Below are positions 2,154 to 57,648 of a DNA stretch of 64,000 nt, in pieces. Made by a program: the position numbers and the translations under genes. The stretch's first letter is position 1; each line of letters begins with the position of its first letter. Below the pieces are notes generated by a model. That model searched no databases. It had not been told where the DNA came from and saw nothing but the letters and a program-made list of their open reading frames with translations. The DNA lies in IMG/VR virus record IMGVR_UViG_2974574300_000001, positions 1 through 64,000 of that record; one strand, written 5' to 3'. The stretch is from a virus. Taxonomy: Duplodnaviria; Heunggongvirae; Uroviricota; Caudoviricetes.

Positions 2154-2230
2154 CTCTGTTTAGCTCAGCTTGGTAGAGCGTTCCGTTTGGGGCGGTAAGG
2201 CCGGAGGTTCAAGTCCTCCAACAGAGACCA
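2154..2230 (+). tRNA. tRNA-Pro (anticodon TGG)
   Basis: 7 bp acceptor CTCTGTT/AACAGAG, D-arm GCTC..GAGC, anticodon loop TTTGGGG, T-arm GGAGG-TTCAAGT-CCTCC, encoded CCA. Confidence 0.75.
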
Positions 2231-2237
2231 AATTAAT

Positions 2238-2315
2238 GTTCCAGTAGACAAAATGGTATAGTCACCACTCTTTCAAAGTGGATATTTGAGGGTTCAAATC
2301 CCTTCTGGAACGCCA
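2238..2315 (+). tRNA. tRNA-Glu (anticodon TTC)
   Basis: acceptor GTTCCAG/CTGGAAC, anticodon stem CCACT/AGTGG loop CTTTCAA, T-arm GAGGG-TTCAAAT-CCCTT, CCA. Confidence 0.7.
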
Positions 2316-2406
2316 GTTTTGACAGAAGACCAATTACAGCAAACTTAATCTTATTCATCTGAAGGTAAATCGGACAAAGAAGAGATTTGGTCTGGTCATT
2401 AAGAAT

Positions 2407-2483
2407 TGCGGGTATAGAGAAAGGGCGTCTCACATGTCTCATTAGCATGGTATCGGCAGGTTCGACTCCTGCACCCGCCTCCA
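2407..2483 (+). tRNA. tRNA-Met (anticodon CAT)
   Basis: anticodon stem CATGT/GCATG loop CTCATTA, T-arm GCAGG-TTCGACT-CCTGC, acceptor with 1:72 mismatch, CCA. Confidence 0.6.
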
Positions 2484-2566
2484 AATTTACAGAAGACCGT
2501 TTACAGCAATATTTATTAAATTTTTAGCGGAAAAATTGAAAGATACGGTCTGGTAATACTAAACAT

Positions 2567-2643
2567 GGTTAGGAAGCACATAAGGTATGTGCGGTCGCCT
2601 GTTAAGCGAATGGCACAGGGTTCGAATCCCTGACTAACCGCCA
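2567..2643 (+). tRNA. tRNA-Asn (anticodon GTT)
   Basis: acceptor GGTTAGG/ACTAACC, D-stem GCAC/GTGC, anticodon loop CTGTTAA, T-arm CAGGG-TTCGAAT-CCCTG, CCA. Confidence 0.7.
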
Positions 2644-2712
2644 AATTTAGGAGAGAAGCGATTGCTCACCGATTTGTAAGGTGCAAGTCCTTAGCCTGAA
2701 TAGAAATTAAAT

Positions 2713-2800
2713 GTGTCGTTATCCCGTAGATGGTAGCGGTGGGGACTGTAAATCCCTTGTCATTGAGACTCGGTAGGTTCGACTCCTACACGGCACACCA
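2713..2800 (+). tRNA. tRNA-Tyr (anticodon GTA), long variable arm
   Basis: acceptor GTGTCGT/ACGGCAC, anticodon stem GGGGA/TCCCT loop CTGTAAA, long variable arm, T-arm GTAGG-TTCGACT-CCTAC, CCA. Confidence 0.7.
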
Positions 2801-2805
2801 ATAAA

Positions 2806-2882
2806 GGTTATGTAGTTTAATTTGGTTAAAATACTCCCTGTCACGGGAGATGATGAGGGTTCAAATCCCTTCGTAACCGCCA
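2806..2882 (+). tRNA. tRNA-Asp (anticodon GTC)
   Basis: acceptor GGTTATG/CGTAACC, canonical Asp anticodon loop CTGTCAC (weak stem), T-arm GAGGG-TTCAAAT-CCCTT, CCA. Confidence 0.6.
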
Positions 2883-3310
2883 ATTTTGAGAGGGCTATTT
2901 AGCCCCTCCCTTAAAGAGTTCTTACGAGTATTCTTTAAAGGAGCAGAAGACCAAATTCAGCAAGTTACTTAAAATTTCAAGCCAATTTAATTTTGAAAAA
3001 TTTAAAACTTGGTCTGGCTCAACAAATTTACAGAAGACCATTTACAGCAAAACTTAAACAATCTATTTCTCGGTAAAGAAAAGGAGAAGGTTCGATTCCT
3101 TCACTCGGCAGGTGTCGAGTTGGTGTAATGGTAGCACTTAAGATGATAAACAACGGTCTGGTAATTATCTTTGTAGATAAGTTATTAAGCTTACCTGTGA
3201 GTATGCGACCACAAAGGGTGAAAGGGTAAATTCTAGATTTAAACCCAAAAAGGCACATCGCTACAGACCTTAAGCAAGTCTGGGTAGCTTATCTACAAAG
3301 ATAATTTAAT

Positions 3311-3386
3311 GGAAGTGTAGCAGAATGGTGATGCGGCAGACTTTTAATCTGACAGGCGATGGGTTCGAATCCCTCCACTTCTACCA
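3311..3386 (+). tRNA. tRNA-Lys (anticodon TTT)
   Basis: acceptor GGAAGTG/CACTTCT, anticodon loop CTTTTAA, T-loop TTCGAAT, CCA. Confidence 0.65.
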
Positions 3387-3390
3387 ATAT

Positions 3391-3467
3391 GGTTCAGTCG
3401 CAGATAAGGTAATGCAAGGGTCTCATAAGCCCTATGAATGTGGGTTCGATTCCCATCTGAACCTCCA
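3391..3467 (+). tRNA. tRNA-Met or tRNA-Ile2 (anticodon CAT)
   Basis: acceptor GGTTCAG/CTGAACC, anticodon stem AGGGT/GCCCT loop CTCATAA, T-arm GTGGG-TTCGATT-CCCAT, CCA. Confidence 0.7.
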
Positions 3468-3469
3468 AT

Positions 3470-3544
3470 TGTGGGTTAGCATAAATGGTAATGCAAACGG
3501 CTGATAACCGTTAGAAGAGGGTTCGATACCCTCACCTACAACCA
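3470..3544 (+). tRNA. tRNA-Ile (anticodon GAT)
   Basis: acceptor TGTGGGT/ACCTACA, anticodon stem AACGG/CCGTT loop CTGATAA, T-arm GAGGG-TTCGATA-CCCTC, CCA. Confidence 0.7.
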
Positions 3545-3559
3545 ATTTCAATAAAGTTG

Positions 3560-3588
3560 TTGACATTGAGATGTGACTACTTTATAGT
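3560..3588 (+). promoter_or_regulatory. sigma70-like promoter (TTGACA-17-TATAGT) inside tRNA array
   Basis: TTGACA 3560-3565, 17 nt spacer, TATAGT 3583-3588. Confidence 0.6.
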
Positions 3589-3880
3589 AACTAAAATACT
3601 TCAGAATATGTATAATTCAAACACCAATACATGAGCGTTAGACGTAACACAATGTGGGGAAATTTGTTGTACATATTCTGAATAGTTTTCGTTGCGTAGC
3701 GTCTATTTTGCAAATTTAAAATAAATGCAAACGACAATGTTTTTCTGGCAGTAGCTTGATAGGCTAAACACCAGTGAGGTCTTCCAATCCCTCATCAAAG
3801 AATTTGGCGTACTAGCCACGGTATGATTAATAAGGTGGGCATCTTTAAGGGCTTTCTAAGAGAGTCTTTAAAGATAATTA

Positions 3881-3962
3881 CGGGGCGTATCTCAGCGGTC
3901 TTCTAAACCGCCGTTAACCGAGTAAGTGGAGTATGCGGGTTCGAGTCCTGCCGCCTCGACCA
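3881..3962 (+). tRNA. non-canonical tRNA-like gene (anticodon-like hairpin with TCT, no clear D-arm)
   Basis: acceptor CGGGGCG/CGCCTCG, T-arm GCGGG-TTCGAGT-CCTGC, CCA; only a 5 bp/7 nt hairpin GCGGT-CTTCTAA-ACCGC placed where the D-arm should be, followed by 23 nt extra region. Confidence 0.45.
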
Positions 3963-4104
3963 ATTAGTTAGCAGATTACTTAGACGACCTAAGCGGGTCT
4001 TCCTGTAGGGAGGTGGTCTGTATCTCATGTTTTCCAGAACATGTAAATAATCTGAGAAGGGGCTTTACAGTGTTGAGATAATACGGTAAGCTTCGAATTA
4101 TAGT

Positions 4105-4187
4105 ATGGGACGATGTTAAGACTCTAAGGCATGAGCAACGGCTTCCAACACCGTTTCAAAGGGGTTCAACTCCTCCGTCCCATGCCA
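4105..4187 (+). tRNA. non-canonical tRNA-like gene (aberrant D region; anticodon uncertain, possibly CCA)
   Basis: perfect 7 bp acceptor ATGGGAC/GTCCCAT, T-loop TTCAACT, CCA; 26 nt between acceptor and candidate anticodon hairpin ACGGC-TTCCAAC-ACCGT. Confidence 0.45.
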
Positions 4188-4200
4188 AAGTCTTATTAGG

Positions 4201-4288
4201 GGTAGGTAGCGGCTAATGGTAGCCAAACTGTCTTGAAAACAGTTGCCACTGTAGAGATACGGTGAGGGTTCGACTCCTTTACTTACCG
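4201..4288 (+). tRNA. tRNA-Ser (anticodon TGA), type II
   Basis: acceptor GGTAGGT/ACTTACC, 3 bp D-stem, anticodon stem ACTGT/ACAGT loop CTTGAAA, long variable arm, T-loop TTCGACT; CCA not fully encoded. Confidence 0.7.
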
Positions 4289-4545
4289 CCTAATAAGATT
4301 TAAAGCCAAGCTTCATTCGGATGTTGCTTTGGTATCCCTCGTGTATTGTCGTACACACTGATAAAACACCTAGTAGGTGTCACGGAGAAGAGATAATATC
4401 AAGCTCTCCAAAGGTTCTAGTCACCGGATTAAACAAGACTATGCAAAGACCTTTTTAGGTCTTTTTAGAGGGCTTCTAAGGTTATTACAGCTTGTTGTGG
4501 AACCTTGTTGCTTAGGTTCTTAGAAGTTCTCTAAAAAGATTTAAT

Positions 4546-4623
4546 GGGAGATTGACGGTAATTGGTAAACCTACCTCGCTTAGAACGAGGTGTTTGAGGG
4601 TTCGAATCCCTTGTCTCCTACCA
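4546..4623 (+). tRNA. tRNA with anticodon TAG (Leu by anticodon) but short variable arm
   Basis: acceptor GGGAGAT/GTCTCCT, anticodon stem CCTCG/CGAGG loop CTTAGAA, 5 nt variable loop, T-arm GAGGG-TTCGAAT-CCCTT, CCA. Confidence 0.6.
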
Positions 4624-4630
4624 AATTAAT

Positions 4631-4706
4631 GCAGGTGTAGCAAAATGGTTATGCGGCTGACTCTTAATCAGTAAGACGATGGGTTCAATTCCCTCCACCT
4701 GTACCA
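4631..4706 (+). tRNA. tRNA-Lys (anticodon CTT)
   Basis: acceptor GCAGGTG/CACCTGT, anticodon loop CTCTTAA, T-loop TTCAATT, CCA; paralog of 3311-3386. Confidence 0.6.
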
Positions 4707-4712
4707 AACATT

Positions 4713-4788
4713 GGGGATGTAGTTTACATGGTTAAAACATAAGTTTTGCAAACTTGGGAACTGAGTTCAATTCTCAGTGACTCCACCA
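4713..4788 (+). tRNA. tRNA-Ala (anticodon TGC)
   Basis: G3:U70 in acceptor, anticodon stem TAAGT/ACTTG loop TTTGCAA, T-arm CTGAG-TTCAATT-CTCAG, CCA. Confidence 0.6.
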
Positions 4789-4794
4789 ATTAGT

Positions 4795-4869
4795 GCATCC
4801 ATAGTTTAAACGGGAAAATTACAGTCTTCCAAACTGAGGTTGAGGGTTCGATTCCCTCTGGATGCTCCA
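4795..4869 (+). tRNA. tRNA-Trp (anticodon CCA)
   Basis: acceptor GCATCCA/TGGATGC, anticodon loop CTTCCAA, T-arm GAGGG-TTCGATT-CCCTC, CCA. Confidence 0.7.
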
Positions 4870-4875
4870 AACAAT

Positions 4876-4952
4876 GCTGCTTTCGTATAATTGGCTATTA
4901 CACATCCCTTGTAAGGATGGAAATGCAGGTTCGAGTCCTGTGAGCAGCACCA
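4876..4952 (+). tRNA. tRNA-Thr (anticodon TGT)
   Basis: acceptor GCTGCTT/GAGCAGC, anticodon stem CATCC/GGATG loop CTTGTAA, T-arm GCAGG-TTCGAGT-CCTGT, CCA. Confidence 0.7.
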
Positions 4953-5047
4953 ATTCAGAGGTCAAGTGAAAGACCGCTGGTGTCAACTGAAGACCGTAAC
5001 AAATTCCACGGAGTTGAGTTAGCGGCACAACTTCAGACCTCTTTCAC

Positions 5048-5122
5048 ACTCGCTTAGTTTATATGGTAAAACATCACCCTTACAAGATGAAGAAAAAGGT
5101 TCAAGTCCTTTAGTGAGTACCA
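5048..5122 (+). tRNA. tRNA-Val (anticodon TAC)
   Basis: acceptor ACTCGCT/AGTGAGT, D-stem GTTT/AAAC, anticodon loop CTTACAA, T-arm AAAGG-TTCAAGT-CCTTT, CCA. Confidence 0.65.
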
Positions 5123-5123
5123 T

Positions 5124-5202
5124 GTTCCAGTATCCCAATTGGCAGAGAGGCCAGACTTAAAATCTGTGTTATGTATCGGTTCGAATCCGATATGGAGTAC
5201 CA
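5124..5202 (+). tRNA. tRNA with anticodon TAA (Leu by anticodon), short variable arm
   Basis: acceptor GTTCCAG/ATGGAGT (6 of 7 pairs), anticodon stem CCAGA/TCTGT loop CTTAAAA, T-arm ATCGG-TTCGAAT-CCGAT, CCA. Confidence 0.5.
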
Positions 5203-5207
5203 ATTTT

Positions 5208-5283
5208 AGCGGTATAGCATAACTGGCAATGCAGCAGTCTCTGAAGCTGTCCTATTAAGGTTCAAATCCTTATGCCGCTGCCA
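5208..5283 (+). tRNA. tRNA-Gln (anticodon CTG)
   Basis: acceptor AGCGGTA/TGCCGCT, anticodon loop CTCTGAA, T-arm TAAGG-TTCAAAT-CCTTA, CCA. Confidence 0.6.
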
Positions 5284-5314
5284 CTTCTAAGGGTTCTTAC
5301 GAGAGTCCTTAAAT

Positions 5315-5390
5315 GTGGCCTTATCATAAACGGTAATGACCCATGCTGTGAACATGGTCTATACGGGTTCAAATCCCGTAGGTCACCCCA
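5315..5390 (+). tRNA. tRNA-His (anticodon GTG)
   Basis: acceptor GTGGCCT/AGGTCAC, discriminator C, anticodon stem CCATG/CATGG loop CTGTGAA, T-arm ACGGG-TTCAAAT-CCCGT, CCA. Confidence 0.7.
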
Positions 5391-5396
5391 ATTTAT

Positions 5397-5472
5397 AGTC
5401 CAAGTAGCTTATATGGTTAAAGCGCGTGTCTGAAAAACATGAGAAGAGGGTTCAAATCCCACTGGACTACCA
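5397..5472 (+). tRNA. tRNA-Phe (anticodon GAA)
   Basis: D-stem GCTT/AAGC, anticodon stem CGTGT/ACATG loop CTGAAAA, T-loop TTCAAAT, CCA. Confidence 0.65.
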
Positions 5473-5489
5473 ATTTTCAAAGGTGCTTA

Positions 5490-6224
5490 ATGAAAGAGAT
5501 GACAGGACAAGGTAAGGAGATTTTTAATCTCTTAAAAACCGGTAAAGGGTTTTCTAACCCACTTATTACTGGTGCAGTAGTTCTCGGTGGAACCGTAGCT
5601 GCCTCTACATCACTTGTAAGCTCTATTAGCTCTGTAACAGACCCTACAATGAAGGAGAAGCTTGTTGCTGCTGGACTCACAACAGTCCTTCTAAACAGCT
5701 TTACAACAAGCCTGACAAGCACTACAGCAACTACTAAGACCCTAACAGACTATGGTCAAAAGTCTATTGATGAGTTTTCATCACGTATGCAGGTAGCAAA
5801 GGGGTATTCCAATGTTATGGGTGCAGCAGGAGAACAAGTTGGTTGTACACCATTTAGTGGTATTATGGGTGTTGCTACAGAGTATGGTCAGCAAGCTATT
5901 GACACGATTAACAGCACACTAGACAGTGTTAACGGTGTGTTAAGTGACTTACAAGACGCTATTGATAAGGGTCTTGATACTGTTTCTGATTTAGCTAACC
6001 AAGCTGTTAGCAAGATTAATGAAGGTATCTCAAAGATTACAGCTTATGCAGATGAAGTTGTGCAGATGATTGAAGAAGAAGCTGCCCTTATTGCAGAGTA
6101 CCTTAAAACGAATATCAATGGGTTCTTAGCAGGTATCTTACCAGACTGGTTTGATGATGCTTGGAAAACTGGTGTAATCGACACTATTGCAACACCAGAA
6201 ATGAAGAACGCATTACAGAAATAA
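5490..6224 (+). CDS. hypothetical protein (Ser/Thr-rich N-terminal half)
   Basis: ORF track 5439-6224 trimmed to first ATG after tRNA-Phe; AGGTG RBS. Confidence 0.5.
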   Translation: MKEMTGQGKEIFNLLKTGKGFSNPLITGAVVLGGTVAASTSLVSSISSVTDPTMKEKLVAAGLTTVLLNSFTTSLTSTTATTKTLTDYGQKSIDEFSSRMQVAKGYSNVMGAAGEQVGCTPFSGIMGVATEYGQQAIDTINSTLDSVNGVLSDLQDAIDKGLDTVSDLANQAVSKINEGISKITAYADEVVQMIEEEAALIAEYLKTNINGFLAGILPDWFDDAWKTGVIDTIATPEMKNALQK

Positions 6225-6225
6225 T

Positions 6226-6318
6226 GGAAGATTAACCCTAAAAGGTAAGGGAGCAGTTTGCTAAACTGCCAGTAGCTGAGAAATCGGTGTACCAGTTCAA
6301 GTCTGGTATCTTCCTCCA
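6226..6318 (+). tRNA. tRNA-Ser (anticodon GCT), type II
   Basis: perfect acceptor GGAAGAT/ATCTTCC, 3 bp D-stem CCC/GGG, anticodon stem GCAGT/ACTGC loop TTGCTAA, long variable arm, T-arm ACCAG-TTCAAGT-CTGGT, CCA. Confidence 0.75.
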
Positions 6319-6322
6319 ATCT

Positions 6323-6398
6323 GAATCCGTGACAGAAATGGATATGTGCCTGTCTGCAAAACAGGTTTATAAGGGTTCAAGTCCCTTCGGATTCTCCA
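6323..6398 (+). tRNA. tRNA-Cys (anticodon GCA)
   Basis: acceptor GAATCCG/CGGATTC, anticodon stem CCTGT/ACAGG loop CTGCAAA, T-arm AAGGG-TTCAAGT-CCCTT, CCA. Confidence 0.75.
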
Positions 6399-18097: not shown

Positions 18098-26113
<8,016 letters not shown>

Positions 26114-36258: not shown

Positions 36259-36449
36259 TACTCAATGTCAATAAGTTCTTGTGCAATGCTTTTCAGATTA
36301 CCTTTCAAGAAAACCTTCTCAGAACCTGAAAGAGATGAATTGTCAATTAACCTGTTCATCCTCTCAAACAACTTCTGCTTACGGTTCTTGATAGTTTCCT
36401 TTGAAGCACCTTTCATCATTGCTGCATGGGTTCTTCCACGGTGGCTCAT
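36240..36449 (-). CDS. hypothetical protein
   Basis: ORF. Confidence 0.4.
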   Translation of the reverse strand: MSHRGRTHAAMMKGASKETIKNRKQKLFERMNRLIDNSSLSGSEKVFLKGNLKSIAQELIDIEYWRHQK

Positions 36450-36500
36450 AAGCCCTCCTATATAAGATACAGTATAAGGTACTCTTCCCTGAGCACCTTG

Positions 36501-37016
36501 TCAACTTAGTTTTGCAAACTCTCCGTGGAGTTTAATAGCAGCTTCACAGTAAGCTTTATGGGCTTCTTCTTCCGTTGTGTATGTTCCTATATGTATAGTC
36601 TTGCCATTATGGTTAATCTGGGCTATCCACTTACCAGACTTGCTTCTACTTGTACCTTTTAAGTTTTTTGATGTTCTGGGTTGTCTCCTATTAGACATGT
36701 TCTGCTCTTTTGTGGCCTCTCTTAGATTGTCCCAAGCGTTATTCAAACCATCTCCATCTTTGTGGTCAATGTGTTTATCAGGCCACTTACCTGTCATCCA
36801 GAACCAAGCAATTCGGTGATTACCTGTCCTGTATCCTAAAATCTGTGTGTGCATATACACACCAGACCTTGTGCGCTTAATTGCTCCGGCTTGGCTTCCA
36901 ATGACCACCCTACTACTATGTGGAGGTCTCCCAATCCATGTTAAGACCCCTGTTTCGGGGTCATAATCTAACCAAGACTTTAACTGTTCATGTGTGAATC
37001 CACAATCTCTCATCAA
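36501..37016 (-). CDS. HNH homing endonuclease with AP2-like DNA-binding domain
   Basis: HIDHKDGDGLNNAWDNLREAT HNH motif and C-terminal GKWIAQI...GTYTTEEEAHKAY AP2-like domain; paralogs at 47411 and 60835. Confidence 0.75.
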   Translation of the reverse strand: MMRDCGFTHEQLKSWLDYDPETGVLTWIGRPPHSSRVVIGSQAGAIKRTRSGVYMHTQILGYRTGNHRIAWFWMTGKWPDKHIDHKDGDGLNNAWDNLREATKEQNMSNRRQPRTSKNLKGTSRSKSGKWIAQINHNGKTIHIGTYTTEEEAHKAYCEAAIKLHGEFAKLS

Positions 37017-37567
37017 TGTACCTCATACCAGCTCTTACCAACTTTACCAGTACCAGTTACAAGCGTTTCCTCCTTAAGACCTAAGTTTCTTGATGCCTGA
37101 CCATACATCCAGTCAATTACTGCTTTAACATCCTGTGTCATCTCTTCTGGGCACTCCCAACTATTCTCGTCGTGGTATGCTAAAAGCAATCTAGCACCAA
37201 TAGCTGGTTTTCGACCATTCAGCTTTGTAAGACCCTCTTCACAAGCCCTTCTACAAGCAAGGTTGATAGCTTCATTCTGAACCTGACTTTCCGAACCCAT
37301 GAGCAAGTAATTTAAAAGTTTGTGCGGAGATTTACACCACAACCATGCACCTGCTACCTTTACAAAACCACCCTTAGAGATTGCAGCAGTCTTACCAAAC
37401 ACCTCTTCAAGAGCCTTCTTAGTGGCTTTGAAGTCTGCTTCCAAATTATCTATCAACTTTTTAATCTTAGGAAGGCGTACAAAGTAAGTTTGCTTAGTTA
37501 AAGCACCCTCTTCAGTAGTTGCAGCTTTAATCGTCTTAGCAAACTTCTCGTCACCTGCCCCAAACAA
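37013..37567 (-). CDS. DNA polymerase (family A, T7-like), 3' exon
   Basis: begins with FGAGDEK continuing motif B; contains motif C LLAYHDE. Confidence 0.8.
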   Translation of the reverse strand: MFGAGDEKFAKTIKAATTEEGALTKQTYFVRLPKIKKLIDNLEADFKATKKALEEVFGKTAAISKGGFVKVAGAWLWCKSPHKLLNYLLMGSESQVQNEAINLACRRACEEGLTKLNGRKPAIGARLLLAYHDENSWECPEEMTQDVKAVIDWMYGQASRNLGLKEETLVTGTGKVGKSWYEVH

Positions 37568-37569
37568 TA

Positions 37570-38370
37570 CATCTGGTCAATACACTCGCAAGGTGTACCA
37601 GTTCTCTTATGAACTTCTCCGCATTTCTACGGAGTGTCGGACTATATCACGTAGCAGTGCTGCTACCGTTGCGCTTGGGATGGTCATTAGCTTACCACCC
37701 TACTCTACTCAGTTCATACGTTAAGTATGCTTTTCGATAGTCTCTGAACGTTTCTCTGTTAGGAATCTCTATAATCATGTTATTTACTCAGGTAGTCAAT
37801 TGCCCTTTGCATATTATCAACGCTATCTGCAAGCAACCCCAAAGCTCTATTGCAATTGTGGCACAACATACCTCTTACTTTTCCGGTTTTGTGGTCATGG
37901 TCAACGACAAGTTTAGCCTTATGCCGTGAGCTATTCATGATAAAACCTTCACCGCCACAAATTTGACATTTGTAATCACAGTTACGAAGTAGGGTTTCAA
38001 CCTCTTCTCTTTCTAAACCATATGTTCTCAGGTAGTAATTCTTAACTCTACCTTTCTCTCCGCAATGCGAAGAACAATAAACTTGCCTTGCTGTTCTAGG
38101 CATGAACACCTTCTCACAGCTAGGACATTTCTTAGTAAGAACCCTATGTTCTGCTCTTCTGTCAAATTTTAATACGCAACTTCTGCACCGTTTTTGATTG
38201 TATTGGTATGGTTTAAACTCTGCACCACACTCAGTACACAATCTCTCTTTGTAACCTGCCATTGTCTCTCTCCTTTGTTTTAGGAGTCCTAACAGAGACT
38301 TCGCTGCTGATTACCATGTCTTTACAGACTTAGGCTTCCAGCAATTCACAACGTTTTACATGCGCCACTG
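37570..38370 (-). mobile_element. group I intron (putative) in DNA polymerase gene
   Basis: about 800 nt separating polymerase motif B halves (IYA.. | ..FGAGDEK); boundaries compatible with exon ending in U and intron ending in G; carries HNH ORF. Confidence 0.6.
37780..38262 (-). CDS. intron-encoded HNH endonuclease (endonuclease VII-like with zinc ribbon)
   Basis: DHDHKTGKVRGMLCHNCNRALG HNH/EndoVII signature plus CxxC pairs. Confidence 0.75.
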   Translation of the reverse strand: MAGYKERLCTECGAEFKPYQYNQKRCRSCVLKFDRRAEHRVLTKKCPSCEKVFMPRTARQVYCSSHCGEKGRVKNYYLRTYGLEREEVETLLRNCDYKCQICGGEGFIMNSSRHKAKLVVDHDHKTGKVRGMLCHNCNRALGLLADSVDNMQRAIDYLSK

Positions 38371-40513
38371 ACGCATAAATACCATTCTTGGCTTTCTTAC
38401 GACCCTTACTAATTTCTTGAAGAAGGTTTGTATCCTGAGTAGCTCGACAAGTCAAGATATCTTCCTCTTTATTAAGGCTGAAGTAGATACTATTTAAAGT
38501 ATGTGCATCAGTTCCTGAGTACACCACGTACAAGTCATTTTCCGAATCATAATGCAAATACTTGTCAATCTCTGGGTTTAGATACTGGTCAAAATGTTTA
38601 CAATAGTATCTACCATCCTCTTGTTTGACAAACTCAACCTCTTCTTTACCCTCTGTCACTGCTTTGGTGAACTCTTTATCACCCATAAAGTTACACAGCA
38701 GTACAAGTTGCGCGCTATTCATATCTGCTGAAACAATATTAGTCCCTTCTTCACAAGTCCACACCTCCCGCATAGGTGCTCCATAGACAGCAGCACCAGA
38801 TGGTACGTTTACAATACCATATTGTGTCATACGCCCAGTTGAAGTACCAAACACCATTGCACCAGCACTAAGGCGACCATCAGGACGAATCTGGTTCAAC
38901 CAACCTTTTTCATCATCCTTTGAGTTCTCAATAGTTCTGCGTCTGTGCATCAAAGTATAGTATTTAGCAATCTTCTGTCCAAGCTCACCTTCAATCGTAT
39001 CATAAGATGATTCAGTAAGTTTTGGCGAAGTACGGATTAAGCAAGGCTCAAGCAAATCTGTGTACTTCTTCACAGACCAGTTATGCTCAATGTACTGGAC
39101 ACCTTCATGTTCAACATAACTCAAACCACACCGCTCAACCATTTCCTGCCACTTAGGATGTTTTGTAATCATCTTTTTATTGTCTTTGAAACGACAAACT
39201 TTGACAGGACGACCATCTGAGTCTTTCTTGTAGTTCCAGTCATCTGGAATCCAACCAACTGATTTCAAGTAGTCTTTAACAACTGCTACCTGAGTCATAC
39301 GAGAAACTTCGAACTCAATTGGTGTATATGGTGCATCAATCAAACCTGTGTAGCGACTTGACTCAAGTTCAAAGTGGTTAACGACGTGGCTGTTATAGTA
39401 CTTCACAGTTTTGACTGTTTTTACTGGTTTCCAGTCTTTGCATTTCTTACCAATCTTTGCGTTCAACTCATTGCAAATTGCACGAGCATCCTTCATTGCT
39501 ACAAAGCCTTCCTTGTACTCTTCACCAGTTACAGTGTTGGTTGGTGTATAGCAATTTCTCTTTTCAATGTTAAAAATCTTTGTAGTTGGCTTACCAAATG
39601 GCTTGATTTCATAAGTTTGCATCTCACCGTTACGTACCTGCTGACGATACTTTGTTTTAGGGTACTTGGTAATTCTCTTCAGTCCATCTGCATGACCAAA
39701 TGTTTCAACATACTCATTCCAAGCTTTTGCAAACTCTTCTCCAGTGACTTTACCTTTGGTCTTAATAGTTGGAGGAAGATGTGGTTCAACCTCTGAAGCA
39801 AGCTCATTAGTCAACTTGTCAAGTTCCTTCACATGGAACTCCATAAGCTCTTTATCAGCTTTCCAACCATTGATAGCTTGTTGACTCATCCAGAAAGATG
39901 TTTCTTTAGCTCGCATGTAGGTTTCATAAGTGTCTATGCCACACTTCTTAAGCTTGAGATACTCATTATCAAGTGCCCGTTTAGTTTTGGCGTTAATACG
40001 GATATCTTCTACAACACGAGTGAAGATTTCTGCATTCCACACACCCCAATGCTCAATCTCTGGTTTACGAACACCAACACGAGCACCCCATGCAGCCAAA
40101 CCATGAGCACCTTTATAACCCTTTGGAGTTGGTCTATCCATCCACTGAACACGAGACTGGATAAGAGAATCCTGAAAGAAATTACTCCACGGCTTACATT
40201 TTGGATTATCAAAGTTCCATAAATCCGGTGCAATGTGATTGAAGACCCACCAGTCATAACCGAGGCCGTTATGGATACAAAGTCGTTTTGCCTTTAACGC
40301 AAACTCAACACCTTCACGTAAACCACCCTTAATGTACTTAGTGTACTTGTGACCGAGGATAGGCTCATCTGTAAAGACCCATACAGGTGGCTCTTCATCG
40401 TCAGATTTATAGTCTGCAAAGGCCATTACGTGAACTTTAGTGAACTCAAGGAGTAAACCATCAGTTTCTGTATCACCAACCAAATGTAAGTTTTTAAAAT
40501 CTACGTTTTCCAT
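38330..40513 (-). CDS. DNA polymerase (family A, T7-like), 5' exon with 3'-5' exonuclease domain
   Basis: exo motif GDTETDG, HNGLGYDW, and motif B start RKKAKNGIYA at the ORF end; reading frame continues into intron to stop at 38330. Confidence 0.85.
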   Translation of the reverse strand: MENVDFKNLHLVGDTETDGLLLEFTKVHVMAFADYKSDDEEPPVWVFTDEPILGHKYTKYIKGGLREGVEFALKAKRLCIHNGLGYDWWVFNHIAPDLWNFDNPKCKPWSNFFQDSLIQSRVQWMDRPTPKGYKGAHGLAAWGARVGVRKPEIEHWGVWNAEIFTRVVEDIRINAKTKRALDNEYLKLKKCGIDTYETYMRAKETSFWMSQQAINGWKADKELMEFHVKELDKLTNELASEVEPHLPPTIKTKGKVTGEEFAKAWNEYVETFGHADGLKRITKYPKTKYRQQVRNGEMQTYEIKPFGKPTTKIFNIEKRNCYTPTNTVTGEEYKEGFVAMKDARAICNELNAKIGKKCKDWKPVKTVKTVKYYNSHVVNHFELESSRYTGLIDAPYTPIEFEVSRMTQVAVVKDYLKSVGWIPDDWNYKKDSDGRPVKVCRFKDNKKMITKHPKWQEMVERCGLSYVEHEGVQYIEHNWSVKKYTDLLEPCLIRTSPKLTESSYDTIEGELGQKIAKYYTLMHRRRTIENSKDDEKGWLNQIRPDGRLSAGAMVFGTSTGRMTQYGIVNVPSGAAVYGAPMREVWTCEEGTNIVSADMNSAQLVLLCNFMGDKEFTKAVTEGKEEVEFVKQEDGRYYCKHFDQYLNPEIDKYLHYDSENDLYVVYSGTDAHTLNSIYFSLNKEEDILTCRATQDTNLLQEISKGRKKAKNGIYASVAHVKRCELLEA

Positions 40514-40709
40514 TTTTACTCCCTCTAAAATCATTAACCCCATACATTACTGCAAAAAATTATAAAAAGCAAGTTGACAATACACTTGACAAGGTGTTAA
40601 TCTTTGCGAAGTGGGTTTTTACTTAAAAGGTTACTTAACAGTTTAACTATACAGATACTTTAAAACTCTTAAAAGATTATTTAATAGCTTTTAAAAAGCT
40701 TTAAAGTAT

Positions 40710-40726
40710 AACGTATAGAATACGTT
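40710..40726. promoter_or_regulatory. palindromic operator-like site in divergent intergenic region
   Basis: AACGTAT-AGA-ATACGTT inverted repeat between divergent replication operons. Confidence 0.4.
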
Positions 40727-40769
40727 AAGATAAAAGATTAAACTTAATAGTTACTTAAAAGAGGCTTAC

Positions 40770-41192
40770 ATGCAGAAAATGTTTGTTCACCCAGACATAG
40801 CTGACTTTGTTAGAGCTTTGCAGAAGTTGGAAGAACTTGACATTGCTGCTCAACGGGAATATGCTCACCATCACAGGAGAATGGTTGATATACAACATGA
40901 AATAGAGTTGTCTGAAAACTATGAAGATGACTTAAAATGCTCTGTATTTGAGCATATGAAAGATGTTGCTACAGCGAGACGTAAAGCTAAAGACACAGTT
41001 GCTTTACTAGATTCTCTTAAAAAGAGGTTGCAAAGTGGTACAGACCTGTGTAATCTAGCGTCACTGATTAACGATGTTGAAACTTCTTGGGATAGGCACT
41101 ATTATCCACGTTCTGAAAAGACACTTGACTTTTCTTCATCCGAAAACTTAAAATGTTCTAGAAAGAAACTTAACCAACTGAGAGAGAAATAA
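40770..41192 (+). CDS. hypothetical protein
   Basis: ORF. Confidence 0.45.
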   Translation: MQKMFVHPDIADFVRALQKLEELDIAAQREYAHHHRRMVDIQHEIELSENYEDDLKCSVFEHMKDVATARRKAKDTVALLDSLKKRLQSGTDLCNLASLINDVETSWDRHYYPRSEKTLDFSSSENLKCSRKKLNQLREK

Positions 41193-54196: not shown

Positions 54197-55393
54197 ATGA
54201 ACAAAGTACAGATTATTAAAAAGAATGGCTCACTCGAAGAACCTGATATCAAAAAAGTTTTAGCAGCAGTCACAAAGTCAGCTAACAGAGTTGGTTATAA
54301 AGAGCTTCCACCAGATGTTACTCAAGCTCTTGAGTCAGCATTTATGAGGATTCTGGTAAAGTCCACTAAGCAGAATAATTTACTCATTTCAGTAAATGAT
54401 ATTCACAGTATTGTTGAGGGTGCTTTGGCAGAAGTCAATCACGAGATTTATGAGTCTTACTCAACATATAGAAATTACCGTAAAGAAGTTGCTCAGAATT
54501 GGGATGAACTCTACCAGAAGACCAAAGATACACTCTTCTTAGGTGACCGAGAAAACGCTAATTTTGACAGCAGTTTAATTTCTACAAAAGGTTCAATTAT
54601 TCGTGGTTATCTGACTAAAGAAATCTTTAAACAGTACCATTTAACACCAGAGGAACTTGAAGCCATTGAAAAAGGGTTTATCTATATCCATGATTTAAGA
54701 GACCTAATTTTTGGTGGTATCAACTGTTGCCTGTTTGACATTGGTAAAGTCCTGAAAGGTGGCTTTGAAATGTCTGGCATTGAATATTGTGAACCGAAGT
54801 CTGTACTGTCAGCCTTACAGGTTATTGGTGACGTAGTTCTTTCAGCAACTGCACAGCAATTTGGTGGCTTTACTTTAGCAGAGATTGATAAGGTACTTGT
54901 GCCGTATGCTAAGAAGTCTCTACGCTATCATGCTGAGAAAGCAACAGCTTATGGTATTCCTAAAGAACATTACCACAACTATGTCATGGAGCAGCTACAG
55001 ATTGAATTAACTCAAGGTTTTCAGTCTCTTGAAATGAAACTAAATACTGTACCTTGTAGCCGTGGTGATTTTGCATTCACAACTTTGACATTCGGGTTGC
55101 TTGACTCAGATATGTCTAATGAAGATAACCGACTGCAATACATGATTGCGAGCACTCTCCTAGATGTTCGTATGAATGGACAAGGTAAGAGCAAGAAGCC
55201 TGTTGTATTCCCTAAATTGGTTTATATTTATGACCAGAAGAGACACAATGAGAATATCTGTCAAGGCCACCTGTACAGTAAAGCTATTGAGTGTTGCTCT
55301 AAAGCTATGTATCCAGATTTCTTAAGTGTATCTGGACATGGTGCTGTAGCAGAGGCTTTTGAGCGTTCTGGCAAGGTAATTTCCCCGATGGGT
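54197..55393 (+). CDS. nrdD: anaerobic ribonucleotide reductase (class III), 5' exon
   Basis: ORF ends ...VISPMG then stop inside intron; downstream exon continues CRAFLSPY. Confidence 0.8.
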
Positions 55394-56135
55394 TAACAGG
55401 CTCTATAGCTCATCTAAAACGTGCCTAAACAGGGAAACTCTACAGATGTAGACAATCCTGTGCTAAATGATGTACGATGTAAGAAACTATACAACATAGG
55501 AGTCTTACATGCCAAACTATCACGTCACTGAAGATGGAAAAGTCTTTAGGGAAAATGGTGTAGAGCTTACGCAGTGGAAATCCAACACTGGGTATATGAA
55601 AGTGAGGTTTTACGGTAAGAAGAATCGTGACATGTATGTCCACAGGTTAGTTGCTGAGAAATATGTACCTAACCCAAATAATCTTCCAATTGTAAAACAT
55701 AAGGACGATAACAAACTAAATAACCACGCATCTAACTTAGAATGGGGTACTCATTCTGAGAATGCTAAAGAAGGTTATGAGAACGGATGCTACAAGTTCC
55801 ACAAGCGTTCATATGCCGTGAAAGCCACACACAAAGTGACAAAGGAAGTTATTGTTGCTAAGTCAATACGAGAGTTATCCAATATACTTGGACACAATCG
55901 CAAGACCATCTCTTCAATATTGAAGGGTGTAAAAGAGCATAATAACTTCGAATATGAGTTTGAATACATCTAAATGCCGAACGACTAACCGTGATGAATG
56001 TAGCGGTGTAGGGTCAAGCGACTCGAAATGGTACGCTACTTAGAAATAAGTAGAAGATATAGTCTGGACTTACTGGCGACAGTAAGCAGCTTGAATAAAG
56101 CGGGGTAAGCTTAGCGAACTTACCTGAACAACAAG
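55394..56135 (+). mobile_element. group I intron in nrdD
   Basis: exon ends with T, intron ends with G, in-frame join PMG|CRAFL; 5' core CTAAACAGGGAAACTCTACAGATGTAGACAATCCTGTGCTAAAT is, as best I recall, close to the T4 td intron core. Confidence 0.7.
55509..55973 (+). CDS. intron-encoded HNH homing endonuclease
   Basis: HKDDNKLNNHASNLEWGTHSEN HNH motif; located inside nrdD intron. Confidence 0.7.
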   Translation: MPNYHVTEDGKVFRENGVELTQWKSNTGYMKVRFYGKKNRDMYVHRLVAEKYVPNPNNLPIVKHKDDNKLNNHASNLEWGTHSENAKEGYENGCYKFHKRSYAVKATHKVTKEVIVAKSIRELSNILGHNRKTISSILKGVKEHNNFEYEFEYI

Positions 56136-57083
56136 TGTAGAGCATTTTTATCACCATACCATAACGAATATGGTGAAGAGTTTTATGTAGGTCGTGCTAA
56201 CATTGGTGCTGTATCTTTGAACTTACCAATGATTTACCAGTATTCTAAAGAGAATGGCTTAGATTTCTGGAAAGAGCTTGATAAGTACCTAGAAATGATT
56301 CGCAGCTTCCACAAGAAACGTTACGAAATGATTGCTAATATGCCAGCAAGTTCTAACCCTCTTGCATTCACACAAGGTGGTCTGTACAAAGGGAATAAGA
56401 AACCTACTGACAAGGTTGGCTGGGATATCGTGAAGTCCTTCACAGCTTCTTTTGGGGTTACTGCGCTTGATGAGCTAGATGTTCTTGCTGAAGGTAAACG
56501 ACTTCATGAAGTTGGAAGCTGTAGTTTTGCATATGATGTTCTGGAATATATCAACATGAAGACTGAAGAGTTTAAAAATGAAGATGGCTTCTTATATGCA
56601 GTCTATGGCACTCCAGCAGAATCACTTTGTGGAACTCAGCTAAAACAGTTCAGAGATATGTTTGGCGTTATCAAAGGCGTTTCTGACAAGGAATACTTTA
56701 CAAACAGCTTCCATATGAATGTTGCAGCCGACATTACACCATTTGAGAAGCAGGACTTAGAAGAACCCTTCTTCCATATCTGTAGAGGCGGCAGAATCCA
56801 GTATGTAAGAGTGGCTAATCCAGAAAACTTACCAGCACTTAAGAGTTGTATTACAAGAGGGATGTTGAAAGGTTTCTATCAGGGACTTAACTTTGACTTA
56901 GCAATCTGTGAGCATTGTGGCAACAGACCAAAGGCTGATGTTGAAGAATGTGAGGTTTGTCATTCACACGATATCTCTGTGATTAACAGGGTGTGCGGGT
57001 ACTTGTCATTCACAAAAATTAAAGGTCAGTCTCGAATGAATGACGCTAAGATGGCAGAAATTAAGGATAGGGTTTCTATGTAG
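56136..57083 (+). CDS. nrdD: anaerobic ribonucleotide reductase (class III), 3' exon
   Basis: C-terminal zinc ribbon CEHCG..CEVC and glycyl-radical motif RVCGYLS. Confidence 0.8.
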   Translation, partial: CRAFLSPYHNEYGEEFYVGRANIGAVSLNLPMIYQYSKENGLDFWKELDKYLEMIRSFHKKRYEMIANMPASSNPLAFTQGGLYKGNKKPTDKVGWDIVKSFTASFGVTALDELDVLAEGKRLHEVGSCSFAYDVLEYINMKTEEFKNEDGFLYAVYGTPAESLCGTQLKQFRDMFGVIKGVSDKEYFTNSFHMNVAADITPFEKQDLEEPFFHICRGGRIQYVRVANPENLPALKSCITRGMLKGFYQGLNFDLAICEHCGNRPKADVEECEVCHSHDISVINRVCGYLSFTKIKGQSRMNDAKMAEIKDRVSM

Positions 57084-57090
57084 AATACAA

Positions 57091-57648
57091 ATGAATTACG
57101 AACTAATATATAATGCAATTATTAAGAAGGCACATTCTGAAAGGGGTGTGCCTCTTACATACTACAAATGTCAAGGTAAGGGTTATGAAAGACACCATAT
57201 CATACCAGTGTGTCTAGGTGGCGATAAAATTAGTGGAGATAATATTGCTTTACTTACACCTAGAGAGCATTATGTAGCTCATAAATTACTGGTTAAGATG
57301 TATCCAAACAATCATAAGTTATGGTTTGCATGGAACAGGTTAGCTCATGATGGCCTAGATAGGAAAATATCATCCAGAGACTATGAAAAGGTAAGGGCTT
57401 TGAACTCGAAAGCTTCATCCATTGTGAATAAAGGTAGGGTTTTCACTGAAGAACATCGAAGACGATTAGGAGAATCTCAAATAGGTAATACAAAATCAAA
57501 AGGTTGTAAAAGGTCTATAGAAACAAGGAAGAGGATGTCAGAAGCCGGAAAAAAGCCAAAGAAAAAGAAAACTTGCCATCATTGTGGTATGACTGGTGGT
57601 GCTGGTAACATGACTCGATATCATTTTGACAATTGTAAGAAAAAATAA
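57091..57648 (+). CDS. HNH endonuclease with NUMOD3-like repeats
   Basis: ERHHIIPVCLGGDKISGDNIALLTPREHYVAH HNH motif; C-terminal basic repeats and CHHCG zinc finger. Confidence 0.55.
   Translation: MNYELIYNAIIKKAHSERGVPLTYYKCQGKGYERHHIIPVCLGGDKISGDNIALLTPREHYVAHKLLVKMYPNNHKLWFAWNRLAHDGLDRKISSRDYEKVRALNSKASSIVNKGRVFTEEHRRRLGESQIGNTKSKGCKRSIETRKRMSEAGKKPKKKKTCHHCGMTGGAGNMTRYHFDNCKKK

Follow-up and report, generated by a model that had tools for sequence, protein, structure and literature searches.

The window, i.e. the whole 64,000-nucleotide stretch of viral DNA that was analysed, is, judging from its sequence, a Felixounavirus (Felix O1-like) genome: a megablast search with positions 36900-40600 has matched 258 phage records, essentially all of them from Felix O1-like myoviruses of the genus Felixounavirus, with the record of Salmonella phage SBA-1781 (JX181817) matching at 100% and those of LNA6, LinBro, VpaE1, JH2 and others at 94-97%. 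The 21 tRNA genes at 2154-6395 (+) are as expected for Felixounavirus, Felix O1 having 22 (PMC3185647); two long-arm tRNAs, at 3881-3962 and 4201-4288, give weak matches to the tmRNA and tRNA-Sec models and are probably just class II tRNAs.

The locus that concerns us here is located on the minus strand, where a family A, T7-like DNA polymerase gene occurs in two parts, with an endonuclease gene in the insert between them (Table 1). The first polymerase ORF (38330-40513) opens with an ATG at 40513, downstream of a GAGGGAG Shine-Dalgarno sequence, reads as far as GRKKAKNGIYA and continues for 13 more codons to a stop at 38330, its C-terminus being ...GRKKAKNGIYASVAHVKRCELLEA; the second ORF (37013-37567) begins with (L)FGAGDEK and has no start codon or Shine-Dalgarno sequence of its own, save for the in-frame TTG (37567) that comes from the mechanical ORF listing. 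The two ORFs match consecutive parts of the Pfam profile DNA_pol_A (profile positions 93-184 and 218-381, respectively), and what the initial annotation had given for the three ORFs (positions, peptide ends and endonuclease assignment) is confirmed throughout by the sequence and by Pfam. The window genome and many of its relatives have been deposited as two polymerase genes accompanied by a 'hypothetical protein' or an 'endonuclease VII'; the SBA-1781 record, for example, lists two polymerase ORFs and a hypothetical protein at this locus.

Table 1. Coordinates of the polymerase exons, the intron, its predicted ribozyme elements and the intron ORF (window positions).
Feature	Position	Strand	Basis
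DNA polymerase exon 1 (family A, T7-like), 2143 nt	38371..40513	-	sequence; weak Pfam DNA_pol_A match; comparison with heid
Group I intron, 801 nt, IA2-like, no P2	37570..38370	-	intron-less alleles; Rfam RF00028; ORF-less orthologues
P1 hairpin	38360..38376	-	sequence; invariant in 9/9 variants, 100% paired
Ribozyme core, 5' half	38287..38353	-	Rfam alignment; MFE fold; pair counts
P3, 5' strand	38353-38347	-	
P4	38343-38338 with 38310-38305	-	
P5/P5a	38334-38318	-	
P6 and P6a, 5' strands	38298-38287	-	
Shine-Dalgarno AAGGAG of the endonuclease gene, 7 nt upstream of the ATG	38270..38275	-	sequence
Putative homing-endonuclease gene, 160 aa (483 nt), looped out of P6a	37780..38262	-	Pfam; alignments; LUZ24 homology
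Ribozyme, 3' half	37570..37764	-	Rfam; pair counts; MFE fold
P6a, 3' strand	37764-37753	-	
P7, 5' strand	37742-37738	-	
P7.1	37729-37715	-	
GUA and P7.2	37703-37677	-	
P3, 3' strand	37673-37667	-	
P8	37666-37651	-	
J8/7 and P7, 3' strand (GAUAUAGUC)	37648-37640	-	
P9 with GAAA loop	37634-37617	-	
P9.2	37601-37573	-	
DNA polymerase exon 2, 557 nt	37013..37569	-	sequence; Pfam DNA_pol_A; comparison with heid

The distance between the polymerase halves, previously put at about 800 nt, is exactly 801 nt (38370-37570), and the boundaries can indeed be placed as had been suggested, with exon 1 ending in U (38371) and the insert, which begins with CAGUGGCGCAUG and ends with ...ACCAGAUG, ending in G (37570). 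Exon 1 closes with ...GGU AUU UAU GCG U and exon 2 starts with UA UUG UUU GGG GCA GGU GAC GAG AAG; joining them in silico, i.e. deleting 38370-37570, gives a 2700-nt ORF of 899 amino acids with no internal stop, in which the split codon is Leu715 (U/UA, phase 1; here and below, the slash marks the junction). The predicted ligated mRNA reads ...UAUGCGU/UAUUGUUU, and the peptide that spans the junction of the joined polymerase is NGIYALLFGAGDEK.

The joined protein aligns with the uninterrupted 906-aa polymerase of phage heid at 96% identity and with no gaps; an uninterrupted polymerase of 906 aa is also what has been described for the Felix O1 type phage (PMC3185647). Motif B is restored across the junction as GRKKAKNGIYA-L-LFGAGDEK, compared with TRDNAKTFIYGFLYGAGDEK in T7. 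A phmmer alignment of the spliced protein with residues 517-622 of T7 gp5 spans the junction (GRKKAKNGIYALLFGAGDEK against TRDNAKTFIYGFLYGAGDEK) and bears out the T7 motif B that the initial annotation had given; the restoration of the motif that it had proposed also stands, while its simple union of RKKAKNGIYA with FGAGDEK omits two leucines (IYA-L-LFGAGDEK). It follows from the alignment with T7 gp5 that the insertion splits the codon corresponding to Phe528 of T7, a residue of motif B that lies between Tyr526 and Tyr530. It is almost certain that the polymerase functions as one enzyme of 899 aa.

The comparison of the locus with its relatives, by megablast of positions 37400-38550 (1151 nt), has revealed three classes of alleles: 39 records match over the whole length, a second class spans 588-661 nt, and a third class spans exactly 350 nt, i.e. 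1151 minus 801, and is intron-less. Introns with an ORF, ORF-less introns and intron-less genes thus coexist among genomes that are 85-97% identical, and this presence/absence polymorphism at an otherwise conserved site is the signature of a mobile element. The exact 801-nt difference, taken with the gap-free alignment of the spliced ORF with heid, indicates that the interruption of the polymerase gene is not a matter of chance. In the intron-less phages MET-P1-301 and heid, the site reads GGT ATC TAT GCA C/TG CTG TTC GGT, i.e. GIYALLFG, the same peptide as in the spliced window; the junction of the intron-less allele is GGTATCTATGCAC/TGCTGTTCGG, and the DNA of the uninterrupted gene in heid and Felix O1 reads ...TATGCAC/TGCTGTTC.... 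All intron-plus alleles have GCG U/UA UUG at the junction, compared with GCA C/UG CUG in the intron-less ones; these differences are synonymous, they would supply the U for P1, and they would be the trace expected from co-conversion.

The ORF-less introns are 311 nt long in EC106, NS7 and garuso, and 268 nt long in IME338, HMD-P8 and Meda, and are 96-97% identical to the ribozyme of the window (96.5% to the ORF-trimmed window intron). In the EC106-type introns, precisely the Shine-Dalgarno sequence and the ORF are missing while the stop codon and the 3' flank are retained, which looks like loss of the ORF; in the IME338-type introns, P6 is reduced to CCUC-UUAA-GAGG. A 44-aa 'hypothetical protein', annotated inside the 311-nt ribozymes of EC106 (594-728 of locus L003), NS7 (477-611 of L009) and garuso (476-610 of L010), is almost certainly a false gene prediction. 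About 320 nt of the window insert are non-coding, and conservation is higher there than in the ORF.

These observations bear on the alternative that had been named alongside the intron, in which the two polymerase ORFs are translated apart and form a two-subunit enzyme, with a free-standing endonuclease between them and with no RNA splicing. Phage genes that are split by free-standing homing endonucleases are known from the T-even phages, and such an arrangement would accord with the many GenBank records that list 'DNA polymerase' twice together with an endonuclease VII, and with the in-frame TTG that the ORF finder gives at 37567. It would, however, divide the O-helix itself between the two chains, at a point between the residues equivalent to Y526 and Y530 of T7, and leave the second chain without a Shine-Dalgarno sequence or an ATG; the splice sites, moreover, recreate the exact peptide of the intron-less alleles. 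The roughly 320 non-coding nucleotides, being better conserved than the ORF, also speak against it, and the insertion of an endonuclease alone would not explain the ORF-less inserts (268-311 nt), which persist and pass the Rfam threshold for group I introns. Because of the O-helix break, the lack of signals at exon 2, the conserved non-coding parts and the persisting ORF-less inserts, we regard a polymerase of two polypeptides as very improbable.

The assignment of the insert to the group I introns has been examined with the Rfam model Intron_gpI (RF00028), whose gathering threshold is 50 bits. At this threshold, the search of the whole window gives no intron match; in the E-value mode, two partial matches occur, one to the P3-P6 part (38347-38211; 26.2 bits, E=2.4e-4), with the core GAAUUGCUGGAAGCC...GGUAAUCAGCAGC, and one to the P7'/P9 part (37648-37619; 12.4 bits), made up of GAUAUAGUC and the P9 hairpin. 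The ORF-less orthologues of EC106, IME338 and HMD-P8 match the full model with 62.2-62.9 bits (E about 1e-14). The score of the window copy is held down to 26 bits by the 483-nt EndoVII-type gene in its P6 loop; the published polymerase intron of phage LUZ24, which also carries an ORF and has served as a control, scores 40.8 bits, i.e. below the threshold, and a low Rfam score is therefore expected in ORF-carrying introns. The covariance-model search that the initial annotation had recommended has thus had a divided outcome, with the orthologues above the threshold and the window copy below it, and the membership of the window intron in RF00028 is reached via orthology, not by its own sequence.

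A group I secondary structure can be folded from the insert: all helices from P3 to P9 can be drawn, including the P3/P7 pseudoknot and the J8/7-P7 segment, with GAUAUAGUC and AAUUGCUGGAA agreeing with the Rfam consensus. P1 is formed by the exon sequence AUGCGU (38376-38371) and the internal guide GCGCAU (38365-38360), in six pairs that include U38371·G38365 at the splice site (AUGCGU/CAGUG GCGCAU), and, with the 3' terminal G at 37570, both splice-site features of a group I intron are present; the P1 loop CAGUG (38370-38366) can pair with UAUUG of exon 2 (37569-37565) as P10. P6a, which closes the loop that holds the ORF, is a perfect 12-bp stem of UCUCUGUUAGGA and UCCUAACAGAGA. The registers of P5 and P6 in the Rfam alignment have flagged mismatches, and they have been replaced by the fully pairing P5/P5a and P6/P6a registers of Table 1.

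In the ORF-trimmed alignment of nine distinct variants, the 83 drawn pairs are paired in 99.9% of cells, compared with 28-44% in slid controls, where the 3' partners have been shifted. Compensatory changes from U-A to C-G occur in P6a and P8 (two pairs), and changes from G·U to G-C occur in P3 and P5a; with so little variation in the ribozyme core (about 93-97% identity between variants), these two compensatory pairs are all that covariation has to rest on. The pair counts are to be read as consistency rather than as strong proof by covariation, given the high conservation of the core and given that the variants counted had also served to draw the structure. The unconstrained MFE fold of the ORF-trimmed intron (-99.9 kcal/mol, z = -5.6) recovers P3, P4, P5, P5a, P6, P6a, P7.1, P7.2, P8 and P9. 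Subgroup IA2 is characterized by P7.1 and P7.2 between P7 and the 3' strand of P3, joined by G-U-A (PMC3428280); P7.1 and the GUA with P7.2 are present in the window intron, and both helices also appear in the MFE fold.

The window intron differs from those of its relatives in a few private changes (one nucleotide is missing from the bulge of P7.2, and bases have changed in P3, in P5a and in the loop of P8), and these could be taken as signs of decay: the insert would then be a group I intron by descent that splices itself inefficiently, that needs host or phage factors, or that leaves the polymerase partly disabled. The private changes, however, either strengthen the pairing, with G·U becoming G-C in P3 and in P5a, or are located in loops and bulges, the endonuclease ORF is intact at 160 aa, and the phage has been isolated and is viable, with the split gene as its sole polymerase gene; a decayed intron is accordingly something that we would give little credence.

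The ORF inside the intron encodes a protein that matches the Pfam family Endonuclease_7 (PF02945) with 70.8 bits (E=9e-20), the cut-off being 23.6. Its N-terminus contains two CxxC...C zinc-ribbon repeats, and its C-terminal domain is an EndoVII/DHHRN ββα-Me domain with C98xxC101, D121-H122-D123-H124, R130 and C134-H-N136-C137-N138, and thus has the D, H, H, R and N of the catalytic site and the four zinc cysteines that define the EndoVII/DHHRN type. This domain aligns with T4 endonuclease VII and Hpy99I, with the DHDH, KVRG and CHNCN segments and the zinc cysteines conserved (VVDHDHKTGKVRGMLCHNCN against LDHDH...KVRGLLCNLCN of T4). The ORF has the same full length as in its relatives, and it is missing from introns that are otherwise near-identical. 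A tblastn search with the endonuclease has found the Felixounavirus orthologues, proteins that are 47-53% identical in the polymerase genes of Bas93, PcaP1EGY and LUZ24, and a long tail of actinophage EndoVII proteins.

An intein, or another element removed at the protein level, would likewise interrupt a conserved motif, and nothing further favours it. The frame of exon 1 runs into a stop after 13 codons of the insert, the endonuclease ORF starts from a Shine-Dalgarno sequence and an ATG of its own rather than as an in-frame fusion, and Pfam finds no intein domains; the reading frames refute an in-frame insertion with splicing domains, and we attach practically no probability to it.

The scan of positions 36400-40800 for promoters and terminators has given no excess over shuffled sequences and no promoter positioned for the endonuclease gene. 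A hairpin at 38255-38312 (-), in which GUCUCU...CUCC (the 5' strand of P6a) pairs with GGAG...AGAGAC and masks the Shine-Dalgarno sequence, as in T4 td/I-TevI, was considered and has been set aside, its stability (-13.8 kcal/mol, z = -1.6) being no greater than that of shuffled sequences; were it real, the folding of the ribozyme would be coupled to the translation of the endonuclease.

The locus is very probably occupied by an 801-nt, potentially mobile, IA2-like group I intron that would excise itself from the polymerase transcript and whose endonuclease would promote homing into empty alleles. An intron with an EndoVII-like HNH endonuclease, as the initial annotation had proposed, is the best supported explanation: the orthologues pass the Rfam threshold, the helices can be drawn, motif B is restored and the alleles coexist. 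In the precursor transcript, the frame of exon 1 would terminate within the intron; the RNA would fold so that P1 presents the U·G pair of 38371 and 38365, with P3-P9 forming the guanosine-binding core and the ORF looped out of P6a, and two transesterifications would then excise the intron, with P10 aligning exon 2, to leave a ligated mRNA for one polymerase of 899 aa. The intron ORF would be translated from its own Shine-Dalgarno sequence into an EndoVII/DHHRN-type ββα-Me endonuclease that, in mixed infections, may cut or nick intron-less polymerase alleles near the insertion site, whereupon recombinational repair would copy the intron and the flanking synonymous exon changes into the recipient. 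We infer the self-splicing, the activity and target of the endonuclease and the homing from the sequence, and homing may be rare or historical, given that many of the intron-bearing relatives have lost the ORF. An experimental demonstration of splicing for Felixounavirus has not been found in the searchable literature.

The presence of an intron with an endonuclease in the polymerase gene is already recognised for close relatives, and elements of this kind are well known, so the novelty that the initial annotation had implied does not hold: the element is present both in the literature (PMC6083498, PMC6486253) and in GenBank (Meda record). Fang et al. (2018) list the EndoVII-motif proteins of JH2, EC6, FSL SP-010 and '2 JES-2013' as intron-encoded (PMC6083498), the announcement of Meda reports an endonuclease-less intron in the polymerase gene (PMC6486253), the polymerase CDS of Meda is given in GenBank as a two-piece join, and Moreno Switt et al. 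(2013) report homing endonucleases inserted in conserved genes of Felix O1-like phages (PMC3728262). JH2, EC6, FSL SP-010/012, VpaE1, Meda and others carry this very element in the identical position, with a sequence identity of 81-97%; nothing essential differs between these introns and that of the window, which is the ORF-containing form with its few private base changes.

Outside Felixounavirus, the closest parallels are Pseudomonas phage LUZ24, whose intron is credited in PMC6083498 to Ceyssens et al. (2008), and Escherichia phage Bas93, whose polymerase is annotated as a joined CDS: in each of them, motif B of a related family A polymerase is interrupted by a group I intron whose P6 region holds an EndoVII-type ORF, and the encoded endonucleases are 51% (LUZ24 gp35) and 47% (Bas93) identical to that of the window. 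They differ in that their predicted insertion site is located 6 nt upstream (AUC U/AU GCG, in the Tyr codon equivalent to T7 Y526), in that their ribozymes have another sequence, with a P2, and in that the exonuclease domain of the polymerase is a separate gene. The T7-like Pectobacterium phage PcaP1EGY also has an EndoVII ORF inside motif B, 52.6% identical, but its predicted site (ACG UU/U AUA, in the Phe524 codon) is located 11 nt upstream of that of the window. The introns with these endonucleases are at 19139-19810 in LUZ24 (locus L015), at about 2810-3520 in Bas93 (L014) and at about 1315-2010 in PcaP1EGY (L016); the start of 'gp36' in the LUZ24 RefSeq record is located about 215 nt downstream of the true start of exon 2.

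More distant polymerase introns share part of this organization. As summarised in PMC3428280, the introns of the T7-like phages PhiI/W31 with I-TslI (Bonocora & Shub 2004, 2009) are alike in belonging to IA2, in carrying the ORF in P6a and in occurring in enterobacterial phages, but they are located at E. coli Pol I position 881, in the region of motif C, and their endonucleases are of another HNH type. The introns of SPO1, SP82, Bastille and Pf-WMP3 (I-HmuI, I-HmuII, I-BasI and I-PfoP3I, respectively) are likewise group I introns that carry HNH nicking endonucleases and that interrupt phage family A polymerase genes in conserved parts, but at Pol I position 674 rather than in motif B, and with endonucleases of the I-HmuI type rather than the EndoVII/DHHRN type (PMC3428280); P2 is absent from the Pf-WMP3 intron, as it is from that of the window, and the polymerase intron of phiL7 is found at position 676 (PMC3428280). 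The DHHRN family with F-CphI (Fang et al. 2018, PMC6083498) uses the same catalytic motif of T4 endonuclease VII for homing; F-CphI differs in being free-standing beside the intron of psbA in cyanophage S-PM2, whereas the window gene is inside its intron and its activity is putative.

The related endonucleases (47-53% identical) are thus found at three predicted motif B sites within 11 nt, in the codons for F524, Y526 and F528 (T7 numbering), and Felixounavirus has the empty site, the intron with its ORF, the ORF deletion with stop codon and 3' flank retained, and the minimal P6. One might tentatively see in this a hotspot, with motif B colonised repeatedly by one EndoVII/DHHRN family in company with different ribozymes, and with all stages of the homing cycle kept in Felixounavirus; we rate this as possible, though on the unlikely side. 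Should it be true, Felixounavirus would be a natural system for the association of endonucleases with introns and for their retargeting (the Bonocora-Shub pathway). Only the three-site cluster with related endonucleases and the complete allele series in Felixounavirus are mildly new; the current understanding of group I introns and of homing is unchanged, and the locus is a further case of a selfish pair of intron and endonuclease that targets an essential phage gene where its conservation is greatest. The coexisting empty, ORF-less and ORF-containing alleles provide a handy marker for recombination among therapeutic and biocontrol Felix O1-like phages.

Additional mobile elements are located elsewhere in the window. 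The gene for the anaerobic ribonucleotide reductase, nrdD, is split at ...PMG/CRAFL... by a probable second group I intron of 742 nt (55394-56135, +), with exon ORFs at 54197-55396 and 56217-57083 and an HNH_3 ORF at 55509-55973; it matches RF00028 with 33.1 bits (E=1.9e-6 locally) and with a further 15.6-bit match to P4-P6. Its alleles among the relatives are full, ORF-less (span of 775 nt) or intron-less (459 = 1201-742 nt; Felix O1 included), and both PMC6486253 and PMC4837284 mention that nrdD is split. Overlapping the 3' end of nrdD exon 2, a putative free-standing homing endonuclease is encoded at 57040-57648 (+), with an HNH-like HHIIP...H motif and NUMOD3 (Pfam E=2e-4). Directly downstream of the polymerase, a free-standing endonuclease gene with HNH_3 and AP2 domains (36501-37016, -) overlaps the polymerase stop codon (CAUUGAUGAG); only some relatives have it, the alignments of matches H2-H14 ending at the polymerase stop codon, and heid and Meda have a homing endonuclease in its position.
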